The notes under the pieces were generated by a model, which was not told where the DNA came from, made no database searches, and saw nothing but the letters and a program-made list of their open reading frames with translations. A stretch of DNA of 64,000 nt from an uncultured Muribaculaceae bacterium (GTDB taxonomy: Bacteria > Bacteroidota > Bacteroidia > Bacteroidales > Muribaculaceae): assembly GCA_910578665.1 (NCBI GenBank), contig CAJTQU010000007.1, positions 26,179 through 90,178 of the forward strand. The letters run 5' to 3'. This document shows positions 2,775 to 45,241 of this stretch, in pieces. How positions within the stretch are numbered: the first letter of the stretch is position 1; each line of letters opens with the position of its first letter. Made by a program: the position numbers and the translations under genes.

Positions 2775-5700
2775 TTATCGTATTATTGTGTCAGTTGTAA
2801 GCGGCACTAGCGAGTCCGAACTCTCCACGGCAACGGACTCTGTTTTCTTTTTACGGCGGCCCATGCGGAATAATGATTTGAGCGAACTGATTTTACGTTT
2901 CATAACAAAGCCCGCGCCGGTTTCGGTCACCTCGCCTTCAAGTATGCTCTCATAGCCCGTATGACGGAACAATTTAAGATACATGTTCATCGTCTGGGTT
3001 TGTTTCAGATTATACTCAAACGCGATATCTGATATCAGATTCTGCGCAAAATTCTCATCGGCATCGGCATCAGTAGAATAATTACCTCCAACCACAATCT
3101 TAAACCGGTTGTCAAACAGACTTTTGCTCACCTGGTATGAATAACTTGTAGTTGTGCTCTGTCCCTGCCCCTCGACCGTCTGTTTATAGTTGTCTATGCC
3201 GAACGAGAGATCTATGCCACGTATATTCTTGGCTGCCCAGGAGTTTAACTGCCCCTCGATAAATGAATAAAGAGGATTGGACAGATTTGCCGATGCTTTT
3301 ACACCAGGCCCCGTATAAGTGTTATAGAGCAACAGGTTGATAGCCGCAGCCGACCGCTGTTCGGGAGTCATCGACAATAACTCGTTCTGCACGGTCACAT
3401 CGTCCTGCGTAGACATATCAAAAGTAACTTTAGGCACTGACAAGGTGCCAGACACGGCAAGCGCCACGTCAAAGTATATGATACGCGAACTGGCACCCTC
3501 CTGCTGCACATTGGCACGGACACGGTCTGTCGCATTTATGCGCAACGTGGGATTCATTATATCACCACTCCAGTTCACATAAGAACCTGTATCGAAATTA
3601 AACGTCTTCTCCCCTATTACCGGCACGCTGTAACGAGCGAAGCCGGTGCCGAGATACAGTGTGCCGTTAAGGCGCATATCTCCCATATAGGTTTGGGTGT
3701 AAGTAAGTGTTCCATAAGGATTAAGCTGAACTTTGTCGGTACCGTTGCCAGAAAGCATCACTGTCACCTCGGCTCCGTTCACTATATTAAGCGTGGCATT
3801 AACACGCATAGACATGGTGCGTGCTTTCAGCGAATCGGCAGCAGCTACCACGGCCGTGTCGGCAAACTGCACAAATTTCACTACATCTGTTGTAGAAGAA
3901 CCATTGTCCAAAGCTGATACAGCAGTGGGACGCACATAGGTTATATCTGTGGAGGGAAGCACCGAAAGATCGGCATCTATATCGAGCCGGTCAAGCGGAC
4001 CGCGCGCCGATGCGTCAAGGTTGACAAACAGTTTGCCGTATACATCCCCCTTGCCCTTTCGCGAGGAATTAACTAACGCCACATCAGAACCCTTAAGTGA
4101 AATATCAAGCAGTACGTTAGAGAATGACCGGGCATCTACCGTGCCGTCAAGCGCTATCGTGTTATCGTTAGCGGCATGTATATCGAATCTGTTGAACCTA
4201 AGCACATTATCCTTAACAACGATTTTGCTGGCAGAGTCCAGGTCCAGCCTTGCTGACGCCATAGGGACATACACGCTGGCTGAATCACACATAATGCTGC
4301 CGTTGAGCAACGGTGCCGACAGTGTGCCGGCCATATTCACAGTGCCGTTAAGATACCCTGAGAGTTGCGCCATATCGGCTCCGATAAACGGATTCGCTAT
4401 GCGCAGAGGAAAACGCGTAAGTGTCAGATCCAATTCGCTTGACTGTCCGGCACGCTGGCGCAATGCGGCTGAATCAGCCAGCATATAACCACGCGCCATA
4501 AGCACTTTCTGGCGGTCCAGATACAGATTCATCGATCCGCCTGTATTACCGTTAAGACCCAGGCCGGCCTTAAAATCGGCCTCAATGTCACCAACGCGCA
4601 TTTTGTCATAAGTCAGACCGGCCACGCCCAGAGTGCCGTTGCCCGTAAACGCTGTGCCGCGATACACTATGTCCATATCGGCATTGAGTGTGCCGGCCAC
4701 AGGTGGCGCTGTAAGGCTCATCTGGAGGAAGTCCTCTATGTGCACATCGGTAATACTTACTGCCAGCGACGTATAGCCCTCACGCGTCTCGCTCGTCTTA
4801 AGGCTGACCTTTGAGCCTGAACTTTCAGCCAGCAGGTCGGCCCTGACTTTACGTCCTGGTCCCAGCTCTATATAGTTGTCTTCAGAAATTTTCCACGGCT
4901 TATAAGCTATGGTCGCAGCCAGCGGTGTGAGATGCACTGACACGGTCGAATCCATCAATGCGGCCGTAAGGCCCAGACGATAACCCATTTTGCCCTTGGC
5001 ATTGCGCTGGCGCAGAAAGACTGATCCGCGATTGCCGCCCACATAACCGTTAATATCTACCGAGGCAAATTCGGGCATGTTGCCGGCCCGGTTGCCCACA
5101 TGCATGCCGTAGTCTATCATCTTGCCTCGTTGTGTGAAGTCAAACAGGGCCGTATCTATGCTTATTGAAGTCGTACCTGCCGACAAGATTCTGGCATTGC
5201 CGGTGACAATGCTGTCGGCATTACACACGCTGACAGCCAAAGAAGCGCAATGATAGCCCATGCGTCCCAGGGCATCCCCCATAAGACCGTCCTCTGTGGC
5301 GTCAAGAGATATGCTGAACGGCGGCAGTAAAGCCTGTATCTCTTCCATATCAAGCGCTTTATCCTTAAGCTGCCTGTTTACCACAGCCATCAGTTTATCC
5401 ATATTAGCGGTTACAGACTTAAGAGGCTCGTCTGAAGCAAACTTGGCATTCAGCCCGTCACCGTTCAGTTCGGCCGCCACATCGGTACTGGTAGCCAGCA
5501 AAGTACCGTCCAGCGCATGAGGCAGTTGAATGTGCTCGCTGCCATACACCCAGTCGATATCATCGATTCCGAATGCCAGATCGAAAAGCATAGCCGAAGG
5601 ATTAGCCGTACCACAGAGATTTATATGGCCCGAACCGTTGCATGTGTCTGCCATAAGGCCAAGTGCGCGCAAATCCACATGGCGCATGTCTGCCTGAATA

Positions 5701-8480: not shown

Positions 8481-8951
8481 TTAAGCCTCAGTCTTCTCTT
8501 CAGCCTCGGCAACAGGAGCCTCGGCAGTCTTCTTAGAACGTGAACGACGTGTCTTGGCAGCCTTCTTCTCTGTCTTGGCAGCGAGCATGGCCTCGTTAAA
8601 GTCTACAAGCTCTATGAAGCACATTTCCGCGTTGTCACCCAGACGGTGGCCAGTCTTAAGAATACGGGTGTATCCGCCCGGACGGTCGGCAATCTTGTCG
8701 GCAACTACGCCGAAAAGCTCTTTGACAGCCTCTTTATTCTGCAGGTGAGAGAATACAAGACGGCGGTTAGCCATATCATCGCGCTTAGCGCGGTTGATGA
8801 TAGGCTCGGCATAGATGCGCAGCGCCTTAGCCTTAGCCAGTGTTGTATTGATTCTCTTGTGCATGATCAGAGAGATGGTCATGTTTGAGAGCATCGCGTC
8901 GCGGTGAGCCTTCTTTCTGCCGAGATGGTTGAATTTTTTATTGTGTCTCAT
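8481..8951 (-). CDS. rplQ: 50S ribosomal protein L17
   Basis: 156 aa, [24 protein letters not shown]... Last gene of the alpha-operon block. Lys/Ala/Glu-rich C-terminal tail. Confidence 0.95.
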
Positions 8952-8959
8952 CGTTATTA

Positions 8960-14987: not shown

Positions 14988-15440
14988 TTACATTTTAATT
15001 ACGGTTCCACCTGCGGCTGTGATAGCCTCTTCAGCTTTTTTAGAGAAGGCATTAGCCTCTACCTCTATGGCCTTGGTCAGAGAGCCATTGCCAAGAATCT
15101 TGACAAGGGCGTTCTTAGATACAAGACCGGCTGAACGCAGGTCGGCAACTGTAATTTTTGCCAGGCCCTTGGCCTGTGCGAGGTCCTCAAGCACGTTGAG
15201 ATTGATGGCCTTGTATTCCACTCGGTTGATATTCTTGAAACCGAATTTGGGCACACGGCGCTGGAGCGGCATCTGACCGCCCTCGAATCCTACTTTGTGC
15301 TTGTAACCGGAGCGAGATTTCGCTCCCTTGTGACCACGTGTGGAAGTACCGCCGTAACCGCTGCCCGGTCCACGGCCAATTCTCTTCCTGTCCTTATTTG
15401 AGCCGACAGCCGGCTGCAAATTGCTTAAGTCCATTTTCAT
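14988..15440 (-). CDS. rplO: 50S ribosomal protein L15
   Basis: 150 aa, MKMDLSNLQPAVGSNKDRKRIGRGPGSGYGGTSTRGHKG... Confidence 0.95.
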   Translation of the reverse strand: MKMDLSNLQPAVGSNKDRKRIGRGPGSGYGGTSTRGHKGAKSRSGYKHKVGFEGGQMPLQRRVPKFGFKNINRVEYKAINLNVLEDLAQAKGLAKITVADLRSAGLVSKNALVKILGNGSLTKAIEVEANAFSKKAEEAITAAGGTVIKM

Positions 15441-15452
15441 TGTCAGTTCGTT

Positions 15453-15632
15453 TTATGCTTTGGTCACTTCCACAAGGTGACGTACGCGGTTTACCATTCC
15501 CATGATACAGGGGTTGTCTTCATGCTCCACAGTGTGGTTCATCTTGCGAAGGCCCAGGGCGTCAAGTGTTCGCTTCTGCACCTGGGGGCAGTTGATGCGG
15601 CTCTTAATTTGTTTGATCTTGATAGTTGCCAT
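15453..15632 (-). CDS. rpmD: 50S ribosomal protein L30
   Basis: Found by hand because it is below the ORF-track cutoff. ATG at 15630-15632, TAA at 15453-15455. Translation: MATIKIKQIKSRINCPQVQKRTLDALGLRKMNHTVEHEDNPCIMGMVNRVRHLVEVTKA (59 aa). Canonical slot between rpsE and rplO. Confidence 0.9.
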   Translation of the reverse strand: MATIKIKQIKSRINCPQVQKRTLDALGLRKMNHTVEHEDNPCIMGMVNRVRHLVEVTKA

Positions 15633-15641
15633 TTCTTAAGA

Positions 15642-16163
15642 TTATTTGCCGTTAAACACTTTGTCTACAGAGATACCACGGTTCTGTGCCACCTGTGCCG
15701 GGCTGCGCAGTTCAGCCAGCGCCGCGATAGTGGCCTTAACCAGGTTGTGGGGGTTAGAAGAGCCCTTGGACTTGGCAAGGACGTCGGTAATACCCACGCT
15801 CTCAAGCACGGCACGCATAGCGCCGCCGGCTTTCACACCGGTACCGGTAGAAGCAGGCTTGAGGAATACGCGGCTGCCGCCGAATTTGGCAAGCTGCTCG
15901 TGGGGTATGGTACCCTTGTGCACAGGCACGCGTATCAGATTCTTCTTAGCAGTCTCCACGCCCTTGGCGATAGCGGCTGTCACCTCGTTGGCCTTGCCCA
16001 GGCCCCAGCCGATCACACCGTCCTCGTTACCCACTACGACGATGGCGGCAAAGCTGAACGCACGGCCACCCTTGGTCACTTTAGTAACACGGTTGATGGC
16101 TACCAGGCGGTCTTTCAGCTCCAAATCATTTGTCGATTTTACTCTATTGTTCTTTGTTGCCAT
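15642..16163 (-). CDS. rpsE: 30S ribosomal protein S5
   Basis: 173 aa, ...[34 protein letters not shown]... Confidence 0.95.
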
Positions 16164-38759: not shown

Positions 38760-39548
38760 TTAAGATTTTCGCTCTACCGATCTTATTACTCTTATGCTAA
38801 TTTCGTATAACAGATACAACGGGATGGCAACAAGTATTAAAGTCATAATATCAGGAGGCGTTATTATCGCTGCAATAACACATATGGCAAGAAATGCGTA
38901 ACTGCGATATTTTATCAGATATGATGATTGAACCAATCCCATCCGCCCTAATACATAGGCTACGACAGGCAGTTGGAACACAAGACCCATCATAAGCGTA
39001 AGAGTCACAAAAGTAGATATATAGCTATCAAGTGTTATAGCGCTATGCACTTTGTCTGCCACCGAATATGTTCCCAGAAATCTGAAAGATATTGGAAATA
39101 AGACAAAATAACTCATAAATATGCCAATAATGAAAAGCAGATATATTATACAAACTATCTGCACGGAATATTTCTTCTCGTTATCTAACAAAGCTGGCGA
39201 AACGAATTTAAACAATTCATAGAGAATGAACGGCGAAGAACAAAACAAACCCAAATAAACCGAAGTAGTTATATGTGTCATAAACTGACTTGACAAATCT
39301 GTCGCTATCAAGTCTATATGAAATGCTCCAAAACTGAATTCCGGCTTAAACGTACGTATTAAATCTTCCAACCAACGATAAGTGCAGAAGTCAGGTTCGC
39401 TTGGAGACAGCAATACGGAAAACGTTACGTCTTTAAAAGCAAATATCAAACATGCAAATATAAGAGTTACAGCCAATATGCGAATTAATATTTTTCGGAG
39501 GACATCAAGATGCCCTCCGAATGTCATGAAAGATTTTTCCGATGACAT
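38760..39548 (-). CDS. tatC: twin-arginine translocase subunit TatC
   Basis: 262 aa. The N-terminus ...GGHLDVLRKILIRILAVTLIFACLIF... matches the HLxELRxRLI start of TatC. Six hydrophobic segments. Starts 3 nt after the tatA stop. Confidence 0.85.
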   Translation of the reverse strand: MSSEKSFMTFGGHLDVLRKILIRILAVTLIFACLIFAFKDVTFSVLLSPSEPDFCTYRWLEDLIRTFKPEFSFGAFHIDLIATDLSSQFMTHITTSVYLGLFCSSPFILYELFKFVSPALLDNEKKYSVQIVCIIYLLFIIGIFMSYFVLFPISFRFLGTYSVADKVHSAITLDSYISTFVTLTLMMGLVFQLPVVAYVLGRMGLVQSSYLIKYRSYAFLAICVIAAIITPPDIMTLILVAIPLYLLYEISIRVIRSVERKS

Positions 39549-39551
39549 AGA

Positions 39552-39782
39552 TTAATTTTTTCGTTCTGGAGAAGTAGCCGGAGATTCCTCCGGCAATATA
39601 TCACTATCTGGCATGTCATTGCCTTTTATATCAGTTGAAACCTCTTTCATTCCGTCTTTGAACTCACGGACTCCCTTTCCAAGTCCGCGCATCATTTCGG
39701 GAAGTTTTTTACCTCCAACTAAAAGGATAGCGAGTCCTCCTATCAATAACAACTCGGTAGTACCAATAAAACATAGCATCAT
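39552..39782 (-). CDS. tatA: twin-arginine translocase subunit TatA/E
   Basis: 76 aa with one TM followed by an amphipathic helix: ...LLLIGGLAILLVGGKKLPEMMRGLGKGVREFKDGMKE... ATGA overlap with the upstream 95-aa gene. Confidence 0.85.
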   Translation of the reverse strand: MMLCFIGTTELLLIGGLAILLVGGKKLPEMMRGLGKGVREFKDGMKEVSTDIKGNDMPDSDILPEESPATSPERKN

Positions 39783-40066
39783 AACAAAACAATCATTCCG
39801 GCGTTACTATATATATTACAGTCAGAAAAATCTATTTCCCAACTTCCATTATCCGCACTTTCCCAAGCATACTTGACAGACATTGACGACCACCAATTAC
39901 GAAAAGAAGTCTCTGTCTCAGCCAAATCTTTAACAAGTTTCTCGTAAAGATCTTCATTATCAGATGTGAGAATCTTTGCTAACTCAGCAAGTCCACTTTT
40001 TCTCTCAAAAAGCATCTGTATTGTATCTCTTTCTTGAGAATTAACCTGACCAATAAGTTTTTTCAT
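39779..40066 (-). CDS. small cytoplasmic accessory protein of the Cys-repeat peptide system
   Basis: 95 aa, MKKLIGQVNSQERDTIQMLFERKSGLAELAKILTSDNEDLYEKLVKDLAETETSFRNWWSS... Helical and acidic, with no signal peptide. Size and context fit my recollection of the 'CXXX repeat peptide modification system protein' family. Confidence 0.5.
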   Translation of the reverse strand: MKKLIGQVNSQERDTIQMLFERKSGLAELAKILTSDNEDLYEKLVKDLAETETSFRNWWSSMSVKYAWESADNGSWEIDFSDCNIYSNAGMIVLL

Positions 40067-40145: not shown

Positions 40146-40631
40146 TCATGCCCTGAACATATAATATGCTCTTATTCTGCAATTACTGCCACAATTATTG
40201 AAAACAACACTCTTTTCCCATAATATAATCAAGTCACTCCAATTTCCATTTTGAGAACAAGACTCAATTATACCGATCTGTTTACCATCCATTATAATCT
40301 TATTATCATTGACCTGGCAGTTGACAGTCTCAACTGTAGTCTCTTGATTATCTAGATAGCTAATTAAAAAACCGTCTACCAGATTTTCACCTATGGGAGC
40401 CACACATATATATGTATACGTATATGCGTTATAGTCAACAATTTGATCTTGACCACCTTCTTCTGAATAAAGGTCTATCTGTTTACATTCCATCCATAAA
40501 CCTGGAAACTGGTTTGTAATACCAGATGTTGTTTCACTTAGTTCGTCACTATTGTCATCTTTACTACATGATGTTATAATAATATTAGCAAAAAACAGGA
40601 TTATAAAACTCAGATATTTTATTTGTTTCAT
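40146..40631 (-). CDS. lipoprotein with an acidic post-Cys stretch (possible surface-export signal)
   Basis: The ORF-track start 40640 is a TTG. The ATG at 40629-40631 gives MKQIKYLSFIILFFANIIITSCSKDDNSDE... (lipobox ITSC, then SKDDNSDE). 161 aa, no recognisable family. Confidence 0.65.
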   Translation of the reverse strand: MKQIKYLSFIILFFANIIITSCSKDDNSDELSETTSGITNQFPGLWMECKQIDLYSEEGGQDQIVDYNAYTYTYICVAPIGENLVDGFLISYLDNQETTVETVNCQVNDNKIIMDGKQIGIIESCSQNGNWSDLIILWEKSVVFNNCGSNCRIRAYYMFRA

Positions 40632-40646
40632 TTTTAACAATTTAAA

Positions 40647-41603
40647 TTATTGATTAATAATACAATCTAAAGGATCAAGATAGTCAATTTCAGCAATGGA
40701 AATTCCTTCAACAATCGGGGTTCTATCACTTTTTAAATTTTCCAGAAAATTTTTTGAAGCATTCCGTTCGCAATGCGCAAGAAGACACTGTATTCTACCA
40801 GGAGTATTCACTTCGCGCGTTACGCGCTGATTAAGCCAAACACACCTCTTACACTGATATGCATCACATATCTTACATATGGGAGCATGGTTAATATCAA
40901 AAAGATAATGATTCTTTATGAATATACCATCTGTTAGTGAACCTATATTCTCCATGCCGACACTATAAAATCCGGGACATATATAAAATAAGCCATCCGG
41001 AGATACCGTGATCGATTCAACAGCCGCATTACAGTTATTCATATCCTTAAGTATCACACGGTCGGTAATAAGATTAAATTGAACCGCATTGCCTTGTGAA
41101 TACAACTCTGACAATAGAGGTATCAGACTATCAAGAAACGATTTATATGCAATGACTTGGCTCTCAGAGACTGACTCTATATCCGTAATAACTACATTAA
41201 GACGACTCAGCCGGTGTAAAAGCTCCCTCATTATATCACCACTTTCAAGTAGATCTTTAAATGTTGTGCGAATTACGCAAGTGATATCCAATTTCAATCT
41301 AAAATCATAAAGATCTGTCCATGAATCGAAAACTATTATTTGAGCTTTATCTAAAGTTTCCTTTACAGGGTAGTCAAAGGGCATAATCTTTATATGATCG
41401 ACACTCTCAACAACATCGTTTATTTCCACTGGCAATTCTTCTCGCGGATAAACAAATTGGATATAAAGATTTTCCAGCATACTGAATCTAACAATCTCAT
41501 GAAGAGTGTCAATATCAGTAAAACTGTCTTTAATACTTTGATTTGGATAATGACAAAAAGATATGGCATTAGCACCAAGTGGAACAATCAGATATTTCAA
41601 CAT
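40647..41603 (-). CDS. SPASM-type Cys-cluster protein lacking the radical SAM CxxxCxxC motif (second maturase component)
   Basis: 318 aa. The N-terminal half has a single Cys (ISFCHYP). The C-terminal half has ...NNCNAAVESITVSPDGLFYICPGF..., ...PICKICDAYQCKRCVW..., ...QCLLAHCER... Seven-nt overlap with the rSAM gene. The size fits my recollection of the 'CXXX repeat peptide maturase' family. Confidence 0.6.
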   Translation of the reverse strand: MLKYLIVPLGANAISFCHYPNQSIKDSFTDIDTLHEIVRFSMLENLYIQFVYPREELPVEINDVVESVDHIKIMPFDYPVKETLDKAQIIVFDSWTDLYDFRLKLDITCVIRTTFKDLLESGDIMRELLHRLSRLNVVITDIESVSESQVIAYKSFLDSLIPLLSELYSQGNAVQFNLITDRVILKDMNNCNAAVESITVSPDGLFYICPGFYSVGMENIGSLTDGIFIKNHYLFDINHAPICKICDAYQCKRCVWLNQRVTREVNTPGRIQCLLAHCERNASKNFLENLKSDRTPIVEGISIAEIDYLDPLDCIINQ

Positions 41604-42817
41604 AACTTATAATTGTTATCCCGAGCCGTCAAAGAGGTACTACAAAGTTTTTCTTCAGACTCCAGTTTGTTAAACAATTTATTCCAGTAATAATTATTTG
41701 CTCTCACACGCGCCTTGTGCATTTTGCAGATAGCGACCGACCGTTGATATATAGTGTCTGTATCAGCTGAATCATAGTTCTCTCCTTGACACCAGGCACA
41801 TCCACTGGCCACTTCGCATTCTATACACTCACGAGGTGACTGGCTTAACCGATCAAGAGATAGGAATGGCCTAAGAAGATCATTGTTGATACCATCTACA
41901 ACATTGCCGATGACGATCGGCTTCTTCTCTCTTAACGAATAAGCTGCAAAGCGAGTACATGGGTAAAAAAGACCTTTTGCATCAACAGCTAACATCCGTC
42001 CTGCTCCACACCAATTCTGATTGTCTACTTTAGAATCCAATGGTTTGCCAATGCTTTCTGAAAAAAATGAACAAGCATGATCCTCATAGTATCCGTGATT
42101 GATAATTTCATCTGCCAGTTCAATCAGCTGCTTTTCGAAAAGCTTATCATCACCTTCTTTCCAAACATTCTCAAATACGACATTGATATTAACCTCTTTG
42201 ATACCTAATGAATAAAGATGCAGCACACTCTCTCTGATATATGGAATATCAGCTGAACTGATAGTGACTTTAGTAGCTCCGTCCGGAAATTGAGACAGCC
42301 AAAGCGGTATGTTACGCACAACATCGTCATAGCTCCCCCGTTCAGGACCGCTACCTTTCCAGATCCTATTTAAGTCATGTTTTCGTTTTGTCCCATCAAT
42401 CGTTATCCCAATAGATAGATGTTCTCTATTTTTTTCTATGTATCGCTGTACTTTTTCACTATCGTAATTGATCCCATTAGTAGAGAACGAAAATCTGTAT
42501 GAATTGAACCATTTATGATTTAGTCGGAACATTTCGGTTTTTATGTAATCACAAATCTTATCAACAAGATCAATTTCTAGAAATGGTTCGCCCCCGATAA
42601 AATCCCATACCACCGAATCATCTTTAAAATCATCTTCATGGATAAGTATGTAATCAATTGCTGCCTTAGCAATTTTCCACTCCATTCGTTCGCTTTCATT
42701 TTTTCCTACAAGATAGCAATACTTGCAAGCAAGCTGGCAATCTTTCGTAACTATGAAAGTAATATTTTTGGTTCTACTTTCTCGCCAAGGGCGTTGTTGC
42801 TCCTTAATAGCACTCAT
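41597..42817 (-). CDS. radical SAM / SPASM-domain peptide maturase
   Basis: 406 aa with CxxxCxxC at C27/C31/C34 (TKDCQLACKYCY) and GGEPFL. C-terminal auxiliary-cluster cysteines: ...NWCGAGRMLAVDAKGLFYPC..., ...CIECEVASGCAWCQGENY..., ...CKMHKA... It lies directly downstream of the two Cys-repeat precursor genes. Confidence 0.85.
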   Translation of the reverse strand: MSAIKEQQRPWRESRTKNITFIVTKDCQLACKYCYLVGKNESERMEWKIAKAAIDYILIHEDDFKDDSVVWDFIGGEPFLEIDLVDKICDYIKTEMFRLNHKWFNSYRFSFSTNGINYDSEKVQRYIEKNREHLSIGITIDGTKRKHDLNRIWKGSGPERGSYDDVVRNIPLWLSQFPDGATKVTISSADIPYIRESVLHLYSLGIKEVNINVVFENVWKEGDDKLFEKQLIELADEIINHGYYEDHACSFFSESIGKPLDSKVDNQNWCGAGRMLAVDAKGLFYPCTRFAAYSLREKKPIVIGNVVDGINNDLLRPFLSLDRLSQSPRECIECEVASGCAWCQGENYDSADTDTIYQRSVAICKMHKARVRANNYYWNKLFNKLESEEKLCSTSLTARDNNYKLC

Positions 42818-42883
42818 ATAATGTGTATTTACATAATAAAGAAATGCAAGTATACCGAAACAAATTCGATATACTCACATTGA

Positions 42884-43201
42884 TTATCTACTTCCATATT
42901 TACATCCTCCGACACATCCTGTTTTGCAAGATGACAAACAAGCTCCTTTACATCCCGATTTACAGGAGTATGGGTGATACTCCATATTTGCACGGCAAGA
43001 GTCTCCACATGATGTTGAGCATGTGGAGCCACAACCAGAACAACCAGAAGACGAACCACCGCCTCCTCCACCTGGTTCATCCTCTGGATCACACGATGTC
43101 AGAAATGTCGGAACAATAGTTAATGCTAATATGGGCATAATTGCCGATACACTCTTCGAGAAAAACTTTCTTCTCGAAATCAGATTTTCATTGCCAATCA
43201 T
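42884..43201 (-). CDS. Cys-repeat precursor B: Tat signal + lipobox + Gly linker + 11-Cys CxxxC core
   Basis: 105 aa: MIGNENLISRRKFFSKSVSAIMPILALTIVPTFLTSC|DPEDEPGGGGGGSSSG CSGCGSTCSTSCGDSCRANMEYHPYSCKSGCKGACLSSCKTGCVGGCKYGSR. The twin-arginine motif is SRRKFFSK, and the lipobox is LTSC at Cys37. Confidence 0.8.
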   Translation of the reverse strand: MIGNENLISRRKFFSKSVSAIMPILALTIVPTFLTSCDPEDEPGGGGGGSSSGCSGCGSTCSTSCGDSCRANMEYHPYSCKSGCKGACLSSCKTGCVGGCKYGSR

Positions 43202-43203
43202 AA

Positions 43204-43479
43204 TTATTTACCAGAGTTATAACACATACCTCTACATGTTCCCTGGCATAAACCACTGCAACTAGTGCATGCATCACTACATTTTCCCGAGCAAGTTCCA
43301 GCACATCCGTAGCAACCACCACGACACGTTGTACAACTTGTAGCATCTGAATTAAGAGAATGGGCCAGGACAGGCGCATTAGCCAGAACTATCGTACCTA
43401 AAATAGGCAGGACTCCTTTCGCCGCGTTTTTAAAGAACTCGCGTCGTGACTGTAATTCTTTGTTTCGATTTTTATCCAT
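43204..43479 (-). CDS. Cys-repeat precursor A: Tat signal + 11-Cys CxxC/CxxxC core
   Basis: 91 aa: MDKNRNKELQSRREFFKNAAKGVLPILGTIVLANAPVLA|HSLNSDATS CTTCRGGCYGCAGTCSGKCSDACTSCSGLCQGTCRGMCYNSGK. The twin-arginine motif is SRREFFK, with a VLA-type signal peptidase I site. The stop is 2 nt before the precursor B start. Confidence 0.8.
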   Translation of the reverse strand: MDKNRNKELQSRREFFKNAAKGVLPILGTIVLANAPVLAHSLNSDATSCTTCRGGCYGCAGTCSGKCSDACTSCSGLCQGTCRGMCYNSGK

Positions 43480-43529
43480 GATCGAACTATCATGTCCTAT
43501 AGGCTCCCCGGATTGGACTTAAGATTTAT

Positions 43530-43775
43530 AAAAAAAGCGTGAAAGCCTGTACCTGTTGCTCTTTCAACTGATAGAGGCTCTCGCATTGCCCGTCTGAGTA
43601 GAAAGAGCAACGTCGAAGCCTCACGCTGTATGATAATACAAGAGCCGGCTCAAACCAGAACCAACATGTGTGTACCATACCCTATAAGGCATCTACCGTT
43701 GCTATTTCCTGACTCAGACAATTAGAATTTGCGAGATTCCTATCAGTCAAGAAAAAGCGTAAGTAAACGCTTTTT
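43530..43775 (-). promoter_or_regulatory. structured 5' leader of the Cys-repeat/rSAM/Tat operon (candidate attenuator, riboswitch-like element or sRNA)
   Basis: A two-tier hairpin at 43537-43626 (GCGTGA/TCACGC plus GTTGCTCTTTC/GAAAGAGCAAC) is followed on the minus strand by U7 (43530-43536). There is 22 bp of three-segment long-range complementarity between 43568-43599 and 43712-43746. A second hairpin, AAAAAGCGT/ACGCTTTTT, is at 43752-43775. Confidence 0.45.
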
Positions 43776-43836
43776 AATTATGTCTGCATCCCACCCACTT
43801 CAACCCGTATCGGGCTTCGACAAGCGATATGCGTCG

Positions 43837-43868
43837 CAAAGTTATAATTTTTATTTTACTAGCACAAA
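43837..43868 (-). promoter_or_regulatory. Bacteroidota-type promoter for the island operon
   Basis: On the minus strand, -33 TTTG (43865-43868), a 20-nt spacer, and -7 TAACTTTG (43837-43844). About 355 nt upstream of the precursor A ATG. Confidence 0.55.
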
Positions 43869-43993
43869 TTTTAACGCATTTTTTCAATTTTGACAAATAC
43901 ACACAACAAAAACTCCATACGGCATACATGAGAATATCGGCTTAAAATATGTTAATTACACCCTAGGCTTGTTATAAAGTGTGAAATTCAAAC

Positions 43994-44001
43994 TATATTT
44001 G
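43994..44001 (+). promoter_or_regulatory. -7 promoter box (TATATTTG) for the GlmU-like gene
   Basis: A TAnnTTTG match 28 nt upstream of the ATG at 44030. Only a partial -33 (cTTG at 43968-43971). Confidence 0.4.
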
Positions 44002-44029
44002 CAATTTCAATACTGACAGATAAGACAGC

Positions 44030-45241
44030 ATGAAGAACGTCATACTATATGATTCGGCATCTGTGCATGCAGATATGCTGCCGCTCTCATTCACCCGTCC
44101 GGTGAGCGACTTCAGAGTAGGCATAACTACCATAAGCGAAAAATGGCAGCACTATCTGCCAGGCAATTACAGTGTGTATACAGCCCCGTACCTGCGTGAC
44201 AAATTCACACCCCACGCGCAAAACACCAATTACTTCGTGGCCGCCAACTGCCTGCCCTCGGCAGAACTGGCAGAAGCCGTGTGCAGCCTCGCCACAGGCA
44301 GCGCGCTGGCAATGCCCGATGGAGAATACATAGCATTTGCCGGTTCAATGGAGGAATTCGAGGCTTTGGTGAAAAATGAGAAAGAGGTGCCTGTCACGAC
44401 ATTTCACGGGCCATGCACACCGCTGCATTTTTTATATGATCTGTTTCTGAACAACGGCAAAGCGCTGGCTGACGATTACCACGTCATAACAGCCGGAAGG
44501 GCCAGCCAGCCTCTGTCTGATTCTAACAGACTGATAGGAAATCCGTTGCTGCCTGACGGTACACCGGCCCTCTTCATAGAAGAGGGAGCATGGATAGAGG
44601 GGGCGACAATCAATGTGTCGGAAGGGCCTGTATATGTAGGCCGCGGAGCCAGAATATCGGAGGGCAGCTGCGTGCGCGGTCCCCTGGCCTTATGCGACCA
44701 CGCCCAGGTTAACATGGGGGCCAAAATATACGGCAACACCACCCTCGGACCGTATTGCAAAGTCGGCGGAGAGCTGAACAATGTGGTCATGTTCGGTTAT
44801 TCCAACAAGGCGCATGACGGCTATCTGGGCAATGCAGTCATAGGCGAATGGTGCAATATCGGTGCCGGTACCAATGCGTCAAACCTGAAAAACGATTATT
44901 CCAAAATACGCCTGTGGAATTACAATAAGCGATCATTCGTGCGCACCGACCTGCAGTTCTGCGGACTAATGATGGGAGACCATTCAAAGGCCGGCATCAA
45001 CTGCATGTTCAATACGGCCACAGTTGTGGGTGTCGGCTGCAATGTACATGGCGCCGGATTCCCAAGACCATTTGTTCCGAGCTTCTCCGAGGGAAGCCCG
45101 TCTGCCGGATTCCGCGATGTAGACCTTAGAAAATTTTTCGACATTGCCGCACGTGTCATGGCCCGACGCGGCATAGAACTAACAGAACTGGACCGCCGCA
45201 TTTTCCAAGCCATATCGGAAGCTGCCGCCAGCTATAAATAA
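44030..45241 (+). CDS. putative sugar nucleotidyltransferase with a left-handed beta-helix (GlmU-like)
   Basis: 403 aa. The C-terminal half shows hexapeptide-repeat character (...IEGATINVSEGPVYVGRGARISEGSCVRGPLALCDHAQVNMGAKIYGNTTLGPYCKVGGE...). Confidence 0.6.
   Translation: MKNVILYDSASVHADMLPLSFTRPVSDFRVGITTISEKWQHYLPGNYSVYTAPYLRDKFTPHAQNTNYFVAANCLPSAELAEAVCSLATGSALAMPDGEYIAFAGSMEEFEALVKNEKEVPVTTFHGPCTPLHFLYDLFLNNGKALADDYHVITAGRASQPLSDSNRLIGNPLLPDGTPALFIEEGAWIEGATINVSEGPVYVGRGARISEGSCVRGPLALCDHAQVNMGAKIYGNTTLGPYCKVGGELNNVVMFGYSNKAHDGYLGNAVIGEWCNIGAGTNASNLKNDYSKIRLWNYNKRSFVRTDLQFCGLMMGDHSKAGINCMFNTATVVGVGCNVHGAGFPRPFVPSFSEGSPSAGFRDVDLRKFFDIAARVMARRGIELTELDRRIFQAISEAAASYK

Follow-up and report, generated by a model that had tools for sequence, protein, structure and literature searches.

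The closest described relative of the locus considered here is the CXXX-repeat radical S-adenosylmethionine (rSAM) system, reportedly defined in silico by Haft and Basu in J Bacteriol in 2011 through the models TIGR04114, TIGR04115, TIGR04116, TIGR04117 and TIGR04119. The locus lies on the minus strand of a 64,000-nucleotide stretch of DNA (hereafter the window) from an uncultured Muribaculaceae bacterium (contig CAJTQU010000007.1), and its first gene encodes precursor A, a 91-residue peptide with a twin-arginine translocation (Tat) signal and 11 cysteines. The original prediction, made from the letters of the window, described A and a paralog designated precursor B but did not recognize that the locus is an already defined CXXX-repeat rSAM system. 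Sequence comparisons now make it probable that A is the first-encoded substrate of the Bacteroidales version of this pathway, in which a peptide made on the ribosome and modified after translation (RiPP) would be recognized through its leader, cross-linked at its cysteines, exported by the Tat translocase and then either cleaved, in the case of A, or lipidated, in the case of B. A literature search on the CXXX repeat, TIGR04115, Tat combined with rSAM, and ranthipeptides found no paper on the chemistry or role of the system, and two papers mining RiPP gene clusters or rSAM enzymes leave it unmentioned; it occurs in hundreds of gut and rumen Bacteroidales species.

Compared with the CXXX-repeat definitions, the locus agrees in that its maturase, TIGR04119 and TIGR04116 proteins score above the curated cutoffs and its precursor carries, as in the family, a Tat signal and Cys-X3 repeats. 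It departs from them in the sub-cutoff TIGR04117 score of A, in the lack of a TIGR04114 match to A and in three CxxC spacings. The linked tatA and tatC genes, the lipoprotein paralog and a leader RNA presumably fall outside those definitions.

Four other systems offer points of comparison. PapA and PapB, of the freyrasin pathway, represent the closest named enzyme family; PapA likewise consists of tandem Cys-X3 units, each closing a small ring, but it uses Cys-X3-Asp, whereas in A-type cores the i+4 residue is the next Cys and Asp is rare, and the maturase of this locus scores far below the PapB cutoff. PapA is not known to have a Tat signal. Among the SCIFF systems (CteA/CteB), CteB is the best solved-structure relative of the maturase and shares its SPASM architecture, although the first 91 residues of CteB are unmatched; SCIFF peptides carry six cysteines and no signal peptide, and are cytoplasmic or of no established fate. 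QhpD, another relative of the maturase (TIGR03906, E = 2e-27), installs multiple cysteine thioether cross-links in the cytoplasm on a small protein that acts in the periplasm, the gamma subunit of quinohemoprotein amine dehydrogenase. No partner dehydrogenase subunits occur here, and while QhpC is exported by way of a separate leader and transporter, the Tat signal on the peptide itself would serve in the present system. Finally, Csp1-type copper storage proteins and metallothioneins are Cys-rich, Tat-targeted and periplasmic. This is a functional analogy only: Pfam and AlphaFold2 (AF2) give no sequence or fold relation to A, and these proteins need no rSAM maturase.

Precursor A and its homologs

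The gene for A occupies positions 43204-43479 of the minus strand (stop codon 43204-43206) in the open reading frame (ORF) listing, and its translation from the ATG start reads MDKNRNKELQSRREFFKNAAKGVLPILGTIVLANAPVLAHSLNSDATSCTTCRGGCYGCAGTCSGKCSDACTSCSGLCQGTCRGMCYNSGK. Residues 1-40 (43360-43479, minus) constitute a twin-arginine signal peptide that probably also acts as a RiPP leader, and residues 41-91 (43207-43359, minus) constitute the core. The features expected of a Tat substrate are present: the twin-arginine motif S11-R-R-E-F-F-K17, an h-region (GVLPILGTIVLANAPVL; LPILGTIVLANAP, with PILGTIV included) and a small-residue -3/-1 site. The SRREFFK motif and PILGTIV h-region on which the original prediction based its call of a Tat-signal precursor are thus both there, as is the C-terminal end it gave for A (tail YNSGK, or CYNSGK with the last cysteine). 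A script count likewise returned the predicted 11 core cysteines, at residues 49-86 with spacings 2,3,2,3,3,3,2,3,3,3, that is, seven CxxxC and three CxxC spacings. The proposed cleavage site, VLA|HS, obeys the -3/-1 rule, but alignment with homologs (SNA|AGS, VSA|SSS, AKA|SNS) shifts the candidate two residues later, to AHS|LNS.

A matches TIGR04117, the 'Cys-Xaa-Xaa-Xaa repeat radical SAM target protein', with E = 5.6e-11 over residues 6-89. Scores of homologs fall on both sides of the cutoff of 50 bits (59.4 for P0068, 40.9 for P0070, 35.3 for P0002), B scores 17 bits only, and the family name is already attached to some homologs at NCBI and JGI, for example in Prevotella. The other hallmarks of a TIGR04117/TIGR04114 target are found in A, namely a twin-arginine signal with Cys-X3 repeats and adjoining TIGR04115, TIGR04119 and TIGR04116 genes. 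A is therefore a member of a catalogued, in-silico-defined CXXX-repeat family, of a slightly aberrant sub-type that contains CxxC. A copy of Pfam without the PF27846 model gave no family for A, B, the TIGR04119 protein or the TIGR04116 protein; PF27846 is precomputed on many homologs (P0068, P0012 and P0017 among them), and not on the identical protein P0001 or the closest homologs.

The protein collection searched contains an identical protein and 88 further homolog clusters (89 clusters in total), and scanning species-representative genomes with the alignment turned up relatives in 337 of them, nearly all under Bacteroidales or close Bacteroidota titles. From these genomes, 80 loci were kept (labelled L001 onward) as the basis of the locus counts below; they represent Muribaculaceae, Prevotella and its relatives, Paludibacteraceae, Bacteroidaceae, Tannerellaceae, Lentimicrobiaceae and a few bins otherwise titled. 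The best matches, at 70% and 64%, come from an isolate of Muribaculaceae and a bin of Sodaliphilus, respectively. L003 belongs to Muribaculaceae Isolate-002 and L005 to Xylanibacter caecicola PCHR, both culturable.

The original prediction had suggested that selection on the gene be estimated. Between A and the orthologs at these two best matches, L001 and L003, the proportion of nonsynonymous differences (pN) is 0.19-0.22 and that of synonymous differences (pS) 0.85-0.86, which is saturated (0.19 and 0.85, respectively, against L003), and all 11 cysteines (11/11) are retained in both orthologs through mixed TGT and TGC codons. A is a real gene under purifying selection. Such a small gene is easily mis-annotated: in P0003, P0006 and P0007, all database entries of near-identical precursors, the protein is either extended (to 122 and 157 aa) or of divergent sequence past residue ~65 (96 aa), which probably reflects start-site miscalls and a frameshifted assembly.

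Modular cysteine repeats behind a conserved signal

From the identical cysteine counts of A and B, the original prediction had argued for a defined topology of exactly 11 cysteines. The counts in the two paralogs were right, but the number is not fixed: among the 89 homolog clusters the core count runs from 6 to 19 (mode 13), once two truncated sequences (0-1 core Cys) are set aside, and equals 11 in only 14 of the 89, while the 131 precursors of the 80 loci have 6 to as many as 35. Only among the 7 nearest clusters (63-100% identity), and not family-wide, is the exact register of A preserved, three CxxC spacings included, such that the conservation of 11 cysteines among close relatives is an effect of orthology. 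Variation also occurs within loci, where A-type and lipobox-type precursors have unequal counts in L063 (13 vs 11), L012 (14 vs 16) and L032 (13 vs 18) and equal counts in L033 and in L076. Repeat number thus appears to be modular rather than fixed.

The spacing between cysteines equals 3 in 774 of 917 cases across the family, and each of the three X positions has a composition of its own in a set of 1417 CxxxC units taken from 133 precursors: X1 is polar, with Ser at 22% and Lys at 13%, Gly makes up 44% and Asn 11% of X2, and X3 is Ser, Gly or Thr in 73%. Pro is absent from the X positions and hydrophobic residues almost so, Asp accounts for 3-4% per X position, with Asp and Glu each within 1-4%, and the consensus unit reads C-[polar]-[G/N]-[S/T/G]. 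Such position-specific composition argues for a structured repeat and against compositional drift.

The signal peptide shows the opposite behavior to the core. Over a block of 32 residues, from 8 before the RR pair to 22 after it, 91 precursors from many families share 73% pairwise identity vs 17% at non-Cys core positions. S11, R12, R13, F15, F16, K17, A19, L24 and P25 are invariant in 71 homologs, and the extended motif QSRRxFFKxAxxxxLP occurs in at least one precursor in 75 of the 80 loci. Conservation of the signal far beyond what Tat needs, in front of a variable core, is the leader/core pattern of RiPP precursors, and suggests that the signal doubles as a RiPP leader; A conforms to the general description of such precursors, a conserved leader followed by a variable core.

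These data bear directly on the most skeptical account of the gene, namely that A is secreted as a Cys-rich peptide without modification, acquires disulfide bonds once exported and lies only incidentally next to the rSAM genes, or that its ORF is a non-coding, low-complexity artefact. The scores of A below curated hidden Markov model cutoffs and the lack of a confidently predicted fold would fit such an account. However, in practically all loci the gene immediately upstream of the rSAM gene encodes a precursor with this signal, purifying selection is strong, with saturated synonymous sites, the signal block is conserved, and Tat export makes little sense for an unfolded peptide that is oxidized only afterwards. 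We consider this account very improbable; purifying selection, the position-specific composition of the repeats and conserved synteny bear out the claim of the original prediction that the cysteine pattern is no low-complexity drift.

The predicted maturation and export cassette

Downstream of the precursors, on the same minus strand, lies a cassette of five recognizable genes. The first, at 41597-42817, encodes an rSAM/SPASM peptide maturase of the CXXX-repeat target family (TIGR04115, 622.7 bits; cutoff 350). It is followed by a TIGR04119 'CXXX repeat peptide maturase' with a SPASM-like C-terminal half (40647-41603; 213.3 bits, cutoff 150), a 95-residue TIGR04116 'CXXX repeat peptide modification system protein' (39779-40066; 91.7 bits, cutoff 50), tatA (39552-39782; TIGR01411, 54.0 bits, cutoff 53.9; PF02416) and tatC (38760-39548; TIGR00945, 158.5 bits, cutoff 132.7; PF00902, 204.6 bits). 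The order rSAM, TIGR04119, TIGR04116, tatA, tatC is colinear in 61 of the 62 loci with enough flanking sequence, with the TIGR04116 and tatA matches a median of 32 nt apart. This colinearity indicates that the translocase belongs to the cassette; the gene for A, its twin-arginine signal, the cassette and its synteny are all observed directly. That tatA and tatC end the cassette in 61/62 loci raises the question of whether Tat in these bacteria serves mainly these peptides.

The maturase is related to several characterized enzymes. Its closest named family is PapB (model NF047865, E = 4.4e-55, 187.2 bits, residues 17-349), it matches the SCIFF maturase model at E = 8.4e-31, and its best solved relative, CteB (5wgg, E = 1.9e-24), aligns over CteB residues 92-443. 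The N-terminal ~91 residues of CteB, which have no counterpart in the maturase, constitute the RiPP recognition element (RRE) of that enzyme. A maturase without this segment would fit substrate recognition by a separate partner.

Two accessory proteins are encoded next to the maturase. The TIGR04119 protein has no CX3CX2C radical-SAM motif and no solved relative was found for it; its residues 180-267 give weak matches to SPASM domains, and the protein weakly matches the SPASM region of the rSAM enzyme. The TIGR04116 protein is 57-80% identical across 49 aligned homologs, and its AF2 model (pLDDT 87.9) comprises a strand, a helical hairpin and a beta-hairpin. Searches of this model against the PDB with Foldseek gave no fold match (E >= 0.56) and a PDB sequence search was empty as well, so that neither of its candidate readings, as an RRE or as a TorD-like chaperone, has a PDB match bearing on it.

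The spacer that separates the maturase gene from the last precursor gene contains a terminator-like stem-loop with a 17-bp stem (42843-42881, minus; minimum free energy (MFE) -20.1 kcal/mol, z = -6.3). Across the same spacer in 47 related loci the median z is -4.35, and 83% fall below -2. Hairpins after the precursor gene are common in RiPP operons and raise precursor transcript levels; the one at 42843-42881 is probably a partial terminator or stabilizer that sets the precursor-to-enzyme ratio.

What lies between TIGR04119 and TIGR04116 varies, and in 26 of 61 loci this slot is longer than 300 nt. In the window it holds a 164-residue lipoprotein-like ORF (40146-40640, minus) with no family match above noise. 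The slot was also noted in L002, L005, L017, L020, L021, L023, L024, L047 and L071, and in several of these it contains extra Tat/Cys-repeat precursors.

A proposed Tat-coupled pathway and its alternatives

On the basis of these comparisons, the pathway might proceed as follows. Expression of the precursor genes would require reading through a large structured leader RNA with a stem and U-run at its end, and the stem-loop behind them would probably raise the yield of precursor relative to enzyme. In the cytoplasm, the highly conserved signal peptide would double as the recognition leader for the maturase, and the rSAM enzyme, together with the TIGR04119 and TIGR04116 proteins, would cross-link the cysteines of a modular repeat array, the likeliest product being a ladder of small thioether rings such as those made by PapB and CteB. 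The rigid cross-linked peptide would then be exported by the co-encoded TatAC, a route we propose since Tat carries folded substrates and Sec does not. Signal peptidase I would cut A after VLA or AHS to release a periplasmic peptide of ~50 residues, while B would be lipidated at Cys37 instead and probably displayed on the surface.

For the cross-links themselves, analogy with the characterized relatives of the maturase makes thioethers the best guess, though one we put slightly below an even chance because acceptors of the PapB type are absent. The Cys-X3-Asp/Glu arrangement is missing from the core of A, whose single Asp sits at an X2 position (CSDAC); across the family the X positions are mostly Gly, Ser and Thr.

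This lack of acceptors is one of several points that weigh against the pathway. The score of A (42.4 bits) lies under the curated TIGR04117 cutoff of 50, the TIGR04114 repeat model does not match A, and the AF2 model of A has no confident fold (pLDDT 49). The maturase falls short of the PapB cutoff (187 vs 340 bits), the confident TIGR04116 model with its empty PDB search presents no recognizable RRE fold, and the cassette contains neither the leader protease nor the ABC exporter typical of RiPP clusters. Modification, export and cleavage are predicted steps, and Tat export also fits a cofactor-loaded product. The leader RNA described below is generic rather than operon-specific, and hence says little about the function of the cassette.

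The compatibility of Tat with a loaded product leads to the idea that A is a metal- or cluster-binding peptide akin to metallothioneins, ferredoxins or copper storage proteins, which would be loaded in the cytoplasm before Tat moves it out as a holo-protein, with the rSAM/SPASM enzyme acting in cofactor assembly or insertion or forming a few cross-links that lock the metal site. Proteins that contain a cofactor are the established typical cargo of Tat, and the operon includes tatAC; cores with 11-13 cysteines, Gly-rich turns and almost no hydrophobic residues, the mixed CxxC/CxxxC spacing of A, a TIGR04119 protein of SPASM-only, Fe-S type without the radical-SAM motif, and the lack of a fold for the apo peptide in AF2 are all in keeping with it. 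Yet the main enzyme is a full rSAM/SPASM maturase whose nearest characterized relatives all form covalent thioethers, a cysteine number of 6-35 is more in line with covalent repeat units than with a cluster of set stoichiometry, and the cassette contains no metal transporter or chaperone gene. On balance, metal binding seems to us an unlikely function, though a credible one.

The RiPP-like leader and core also invite comparison with bacteriocin-like ranthipeptides or sactipeptides, for which Tat would replace the usual ABC exporter. The core is hypervariable, each of the 80 loci carries 1 to 5 precursors, and several relatives of the maturase make antimicrobial peptides. An antimicrobial role is nevertheless improbable: distribution over 337 genomes, a tat-fused cassette and a conserved gene order look like a housekeeping or envelope function, neither an immunity gene nor an exporter is present, and a lipid-anchored B is hard to square with a diffusible toxin.

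Returning to Tat-coupled maturation, if the Tat signal does double as a RiPP leader, the system would show how peptides cross-linked in the cytoplasm can leave it with neither an ABC transporter nor a protease dedicated to them. The locus offers a compact, testable example, with two substrates of different fates, a maturase lacking the segment that carries the RRE in CteB, two accessory proteins and a Tat translocase in one operon.

Precursor B and the soluble/lipoprotein pair

Precursor B (42884-43201, minus) starts 2 nt after the stop codon of A and encodes a paralog of 105 residues with an SRRKFF motif, a lipobox (LTSC), an acidic stretch (C-DPEDEP), a Gly/Ser linker and 12 cysteines, of which one (Cys37) belongs to the lipobox and 11 to the core. 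That A and B are paralogs, as originally proposed, stands, with the qualification that at 26% identity they are distant ones. The lipobox of B (L-T-S-C37) agrees with the pattern [LVI][ASTVI][GAS]C, and IAAC, LTAC and ITSC occupy the same place in B-type orthologs. True orthologs of B were found in L033, L063 and L076, where they have in common the lipobox, a C-G-x-DEP stretch, the Gly/Ser linker, an insert of 10 residues free of Cys and the ending CKYGSK; lipobox precursors of other types, also with acidic stretches, occur in L002, L024, L016 and L036. The pairing of a soluble with a lipid-anchored precursor, as put forward in the original prediction, accordingly recurs in these loci, yet the two closest relatives, L001 and L003, lack it and have the A type only. 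The further proposal that the two are versions of the same product does not hold, as B, unlike A, carries the Gly/Ser linker and the 10-residue insert.

In Bacteroidetes, acidic residues directly after the lipidated cysteine constitute a signal for export of lipoproteins to the surface. The acidic stretch of B suggests by this analogy that B is probably displayed on the cell surface. The residues in question are DPEDEP in B, GGDEP, GEDEP and GTDEP in its orthologs and DKDDP, EKDDP and DKEDDE in other lipobox precursors.

A structured leader RNA upstream of precursor A

Upstream of A is a 550-nt gap, and the ~390 nt before the ATG are 77-81% identical in other Muribaculaceae-type loci, despite saturated synonymous sites in the adjacent gene; two blocks persist in Prevotella and Paludibacteraceae. 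These belong to a leader RNA whose core spans 43529-43774 (minus), with a 5' domain at 43674-43774 and a 3' domain at 43529-43628 that ends in a stem and U-run (43530-43540; nhmmer E = 4e-23 and 1e-28). The core is ~267 nt long (median in metagenomes), or ~350 nt with flanks, and ends in the stem and U7.

The case for an RNA rests on folding and covariation. The leader region folds with an MFE z of -7.4, and RNAalifold on 31 sequences returned 59 pairs, 35 of them with compensatory changes. In 92 copies, 96.8% of alignment cells in the named helices are paired vs 34-53% when the partner columns are slid, and 33 of 49 pairs show compensatory changes (516 cells), values that none of 500 shuffles reached. 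Six helices covary, and H1 and H2 (in the 31-sequence set H3 too) cross the covarying helix b:b', such that the leader RNA is pseudoknotted or bistable. A proposed local hairpin, CTTGACT/AGTCAAG, found no support in the alignment used, where 48% of its cells pair. Readings of the leader as a DNA inverted repeat or as a miniature inverted-repeat transposable element were rejected because its orientation and its distance from the downstream ATG are fixed and because G-U pairs specific to the sense strand are frequent, the latter pointing to pairing in RNA rather than to a DNA repeat.

Rfam 15 has no match at E <= 1 for window positions 43400-44100, and seven other copies gave only chance matches of microRNA type far below gathering scores; the conserved segments, sought as text strings in the papers searched, also gave no match. 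The leader RNA is thus absent from Rfam 15 and may have been described outside it. The FopS small RNA (sRNA) family was considered and rejected, since FopS sRNAs are 65-70 nt long.

Several signals flank this core on the minus strand. A candidate promoter of Bacteroidetes type was read from the sequence at 43837-43868, with TTTG (43865-43868), a 20-nt spacer and TAACTTTG (43837-43844), a consensus of the Bacteroides sigma-ABfr type; a TAnnTTTG box is conserved across related loci (columns about 70-79 of alignment A2). No promoter motif was seen between the U-run and the ATG of A. This spacer (43477-43520) contains a hairpin with a GGGGAG loop (~43494-43516) that is conserved in CXXX loci, and hairpins with GGGAG-like loops recur after the U-run in unrelated contexts. 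A second hairpin, CATGAT-N6-ATCATG (43477-43494), encloses the start codon, is kept in related loci through G-U pairs or compensating changes, and may control translation initiation of A.

Distribution of the leader RNA

The 3' domain was matched in 63 of the 80 CXXX loci, mostly before the first precursor gene and in a few further upstream or ahead of other genes, and one locus has two copies. A pattern scan of metagenomes found at least 120 loci with 118 confirmed copies among the matches listed, to which the counts that follow in this paragraph and the next refer. A precursor lies downstream in only 4-6 of the 118 copies, and for this reason an operon-specific riboswitch was rejected. The first downstream genes, from gut and rumen metagenomes, fall into at least 67 clusters among 106 and into 76 Pfam families among 84 proteins scanned. 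They include genes for BspA-type leucine-rich repeat proteins (7), NusG/UpxY-like proteins (7/84), methyltransferases and M48 peptidases, and their start codons follow the leader RNA at a median of 70 nt. Upstream neighbors form 59 clusters among 65, on which ground an integrase or att-site marker was also rejected.

The leader RNA is therefore a portable leader module, and our working guess for its action is a terminator under regulation or a platform for antitermination. Genes of the NusG-like type rank with the commonest ones downstream of it. In Bacteroides, recruitment of UpxY involves an ops consensus, YGCGNAGCR (PMC11685472). An invariant segment of the leader RNA, GGCAAUGCGARRGCCU (~43580-43592, minus; columns 349-364 of alignment A4), resembles this consensus; the segment pairs in helix H2, and the resemblance may be coincidental.

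The leader RNA is abundant in gut metagenomes and strongly supported by covariation, and could be a regulatory RNA of a new class, one that serves accessory and surface genes in a phylum dominant in the gut; it may deserve more interest than precursor A itself. Joining the two subjects yields a broader and distinctly more tentative model, in which a single signal serves as leader and export signal, TatAC exports a cysteine ladder in both soluble and surface-lipoprotein form, and the operon is gated by a portable, hitherto undescribed pseudoknotted leader RNA (~270 nt) that also stands, throughout gut Bacteroidales, before dozens of accessory, surface and NusG-like genes with no relation to one another.

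Additional copies were noted near some of the CXXX cassettes. In L076, two copies (8701-8953 and 15411-15663) precede Ser/Thr kinase genes. In L005, one at about 3196-3288 stands before a gene for a 475-residue signal-peptide protein, peptidase-like by eye, and two small lipoprotein-like ORFs, and in L009 a copy at 1724-1983 of the minus strand precedes a gene for a beta-barrel-like outer-membrane protein.

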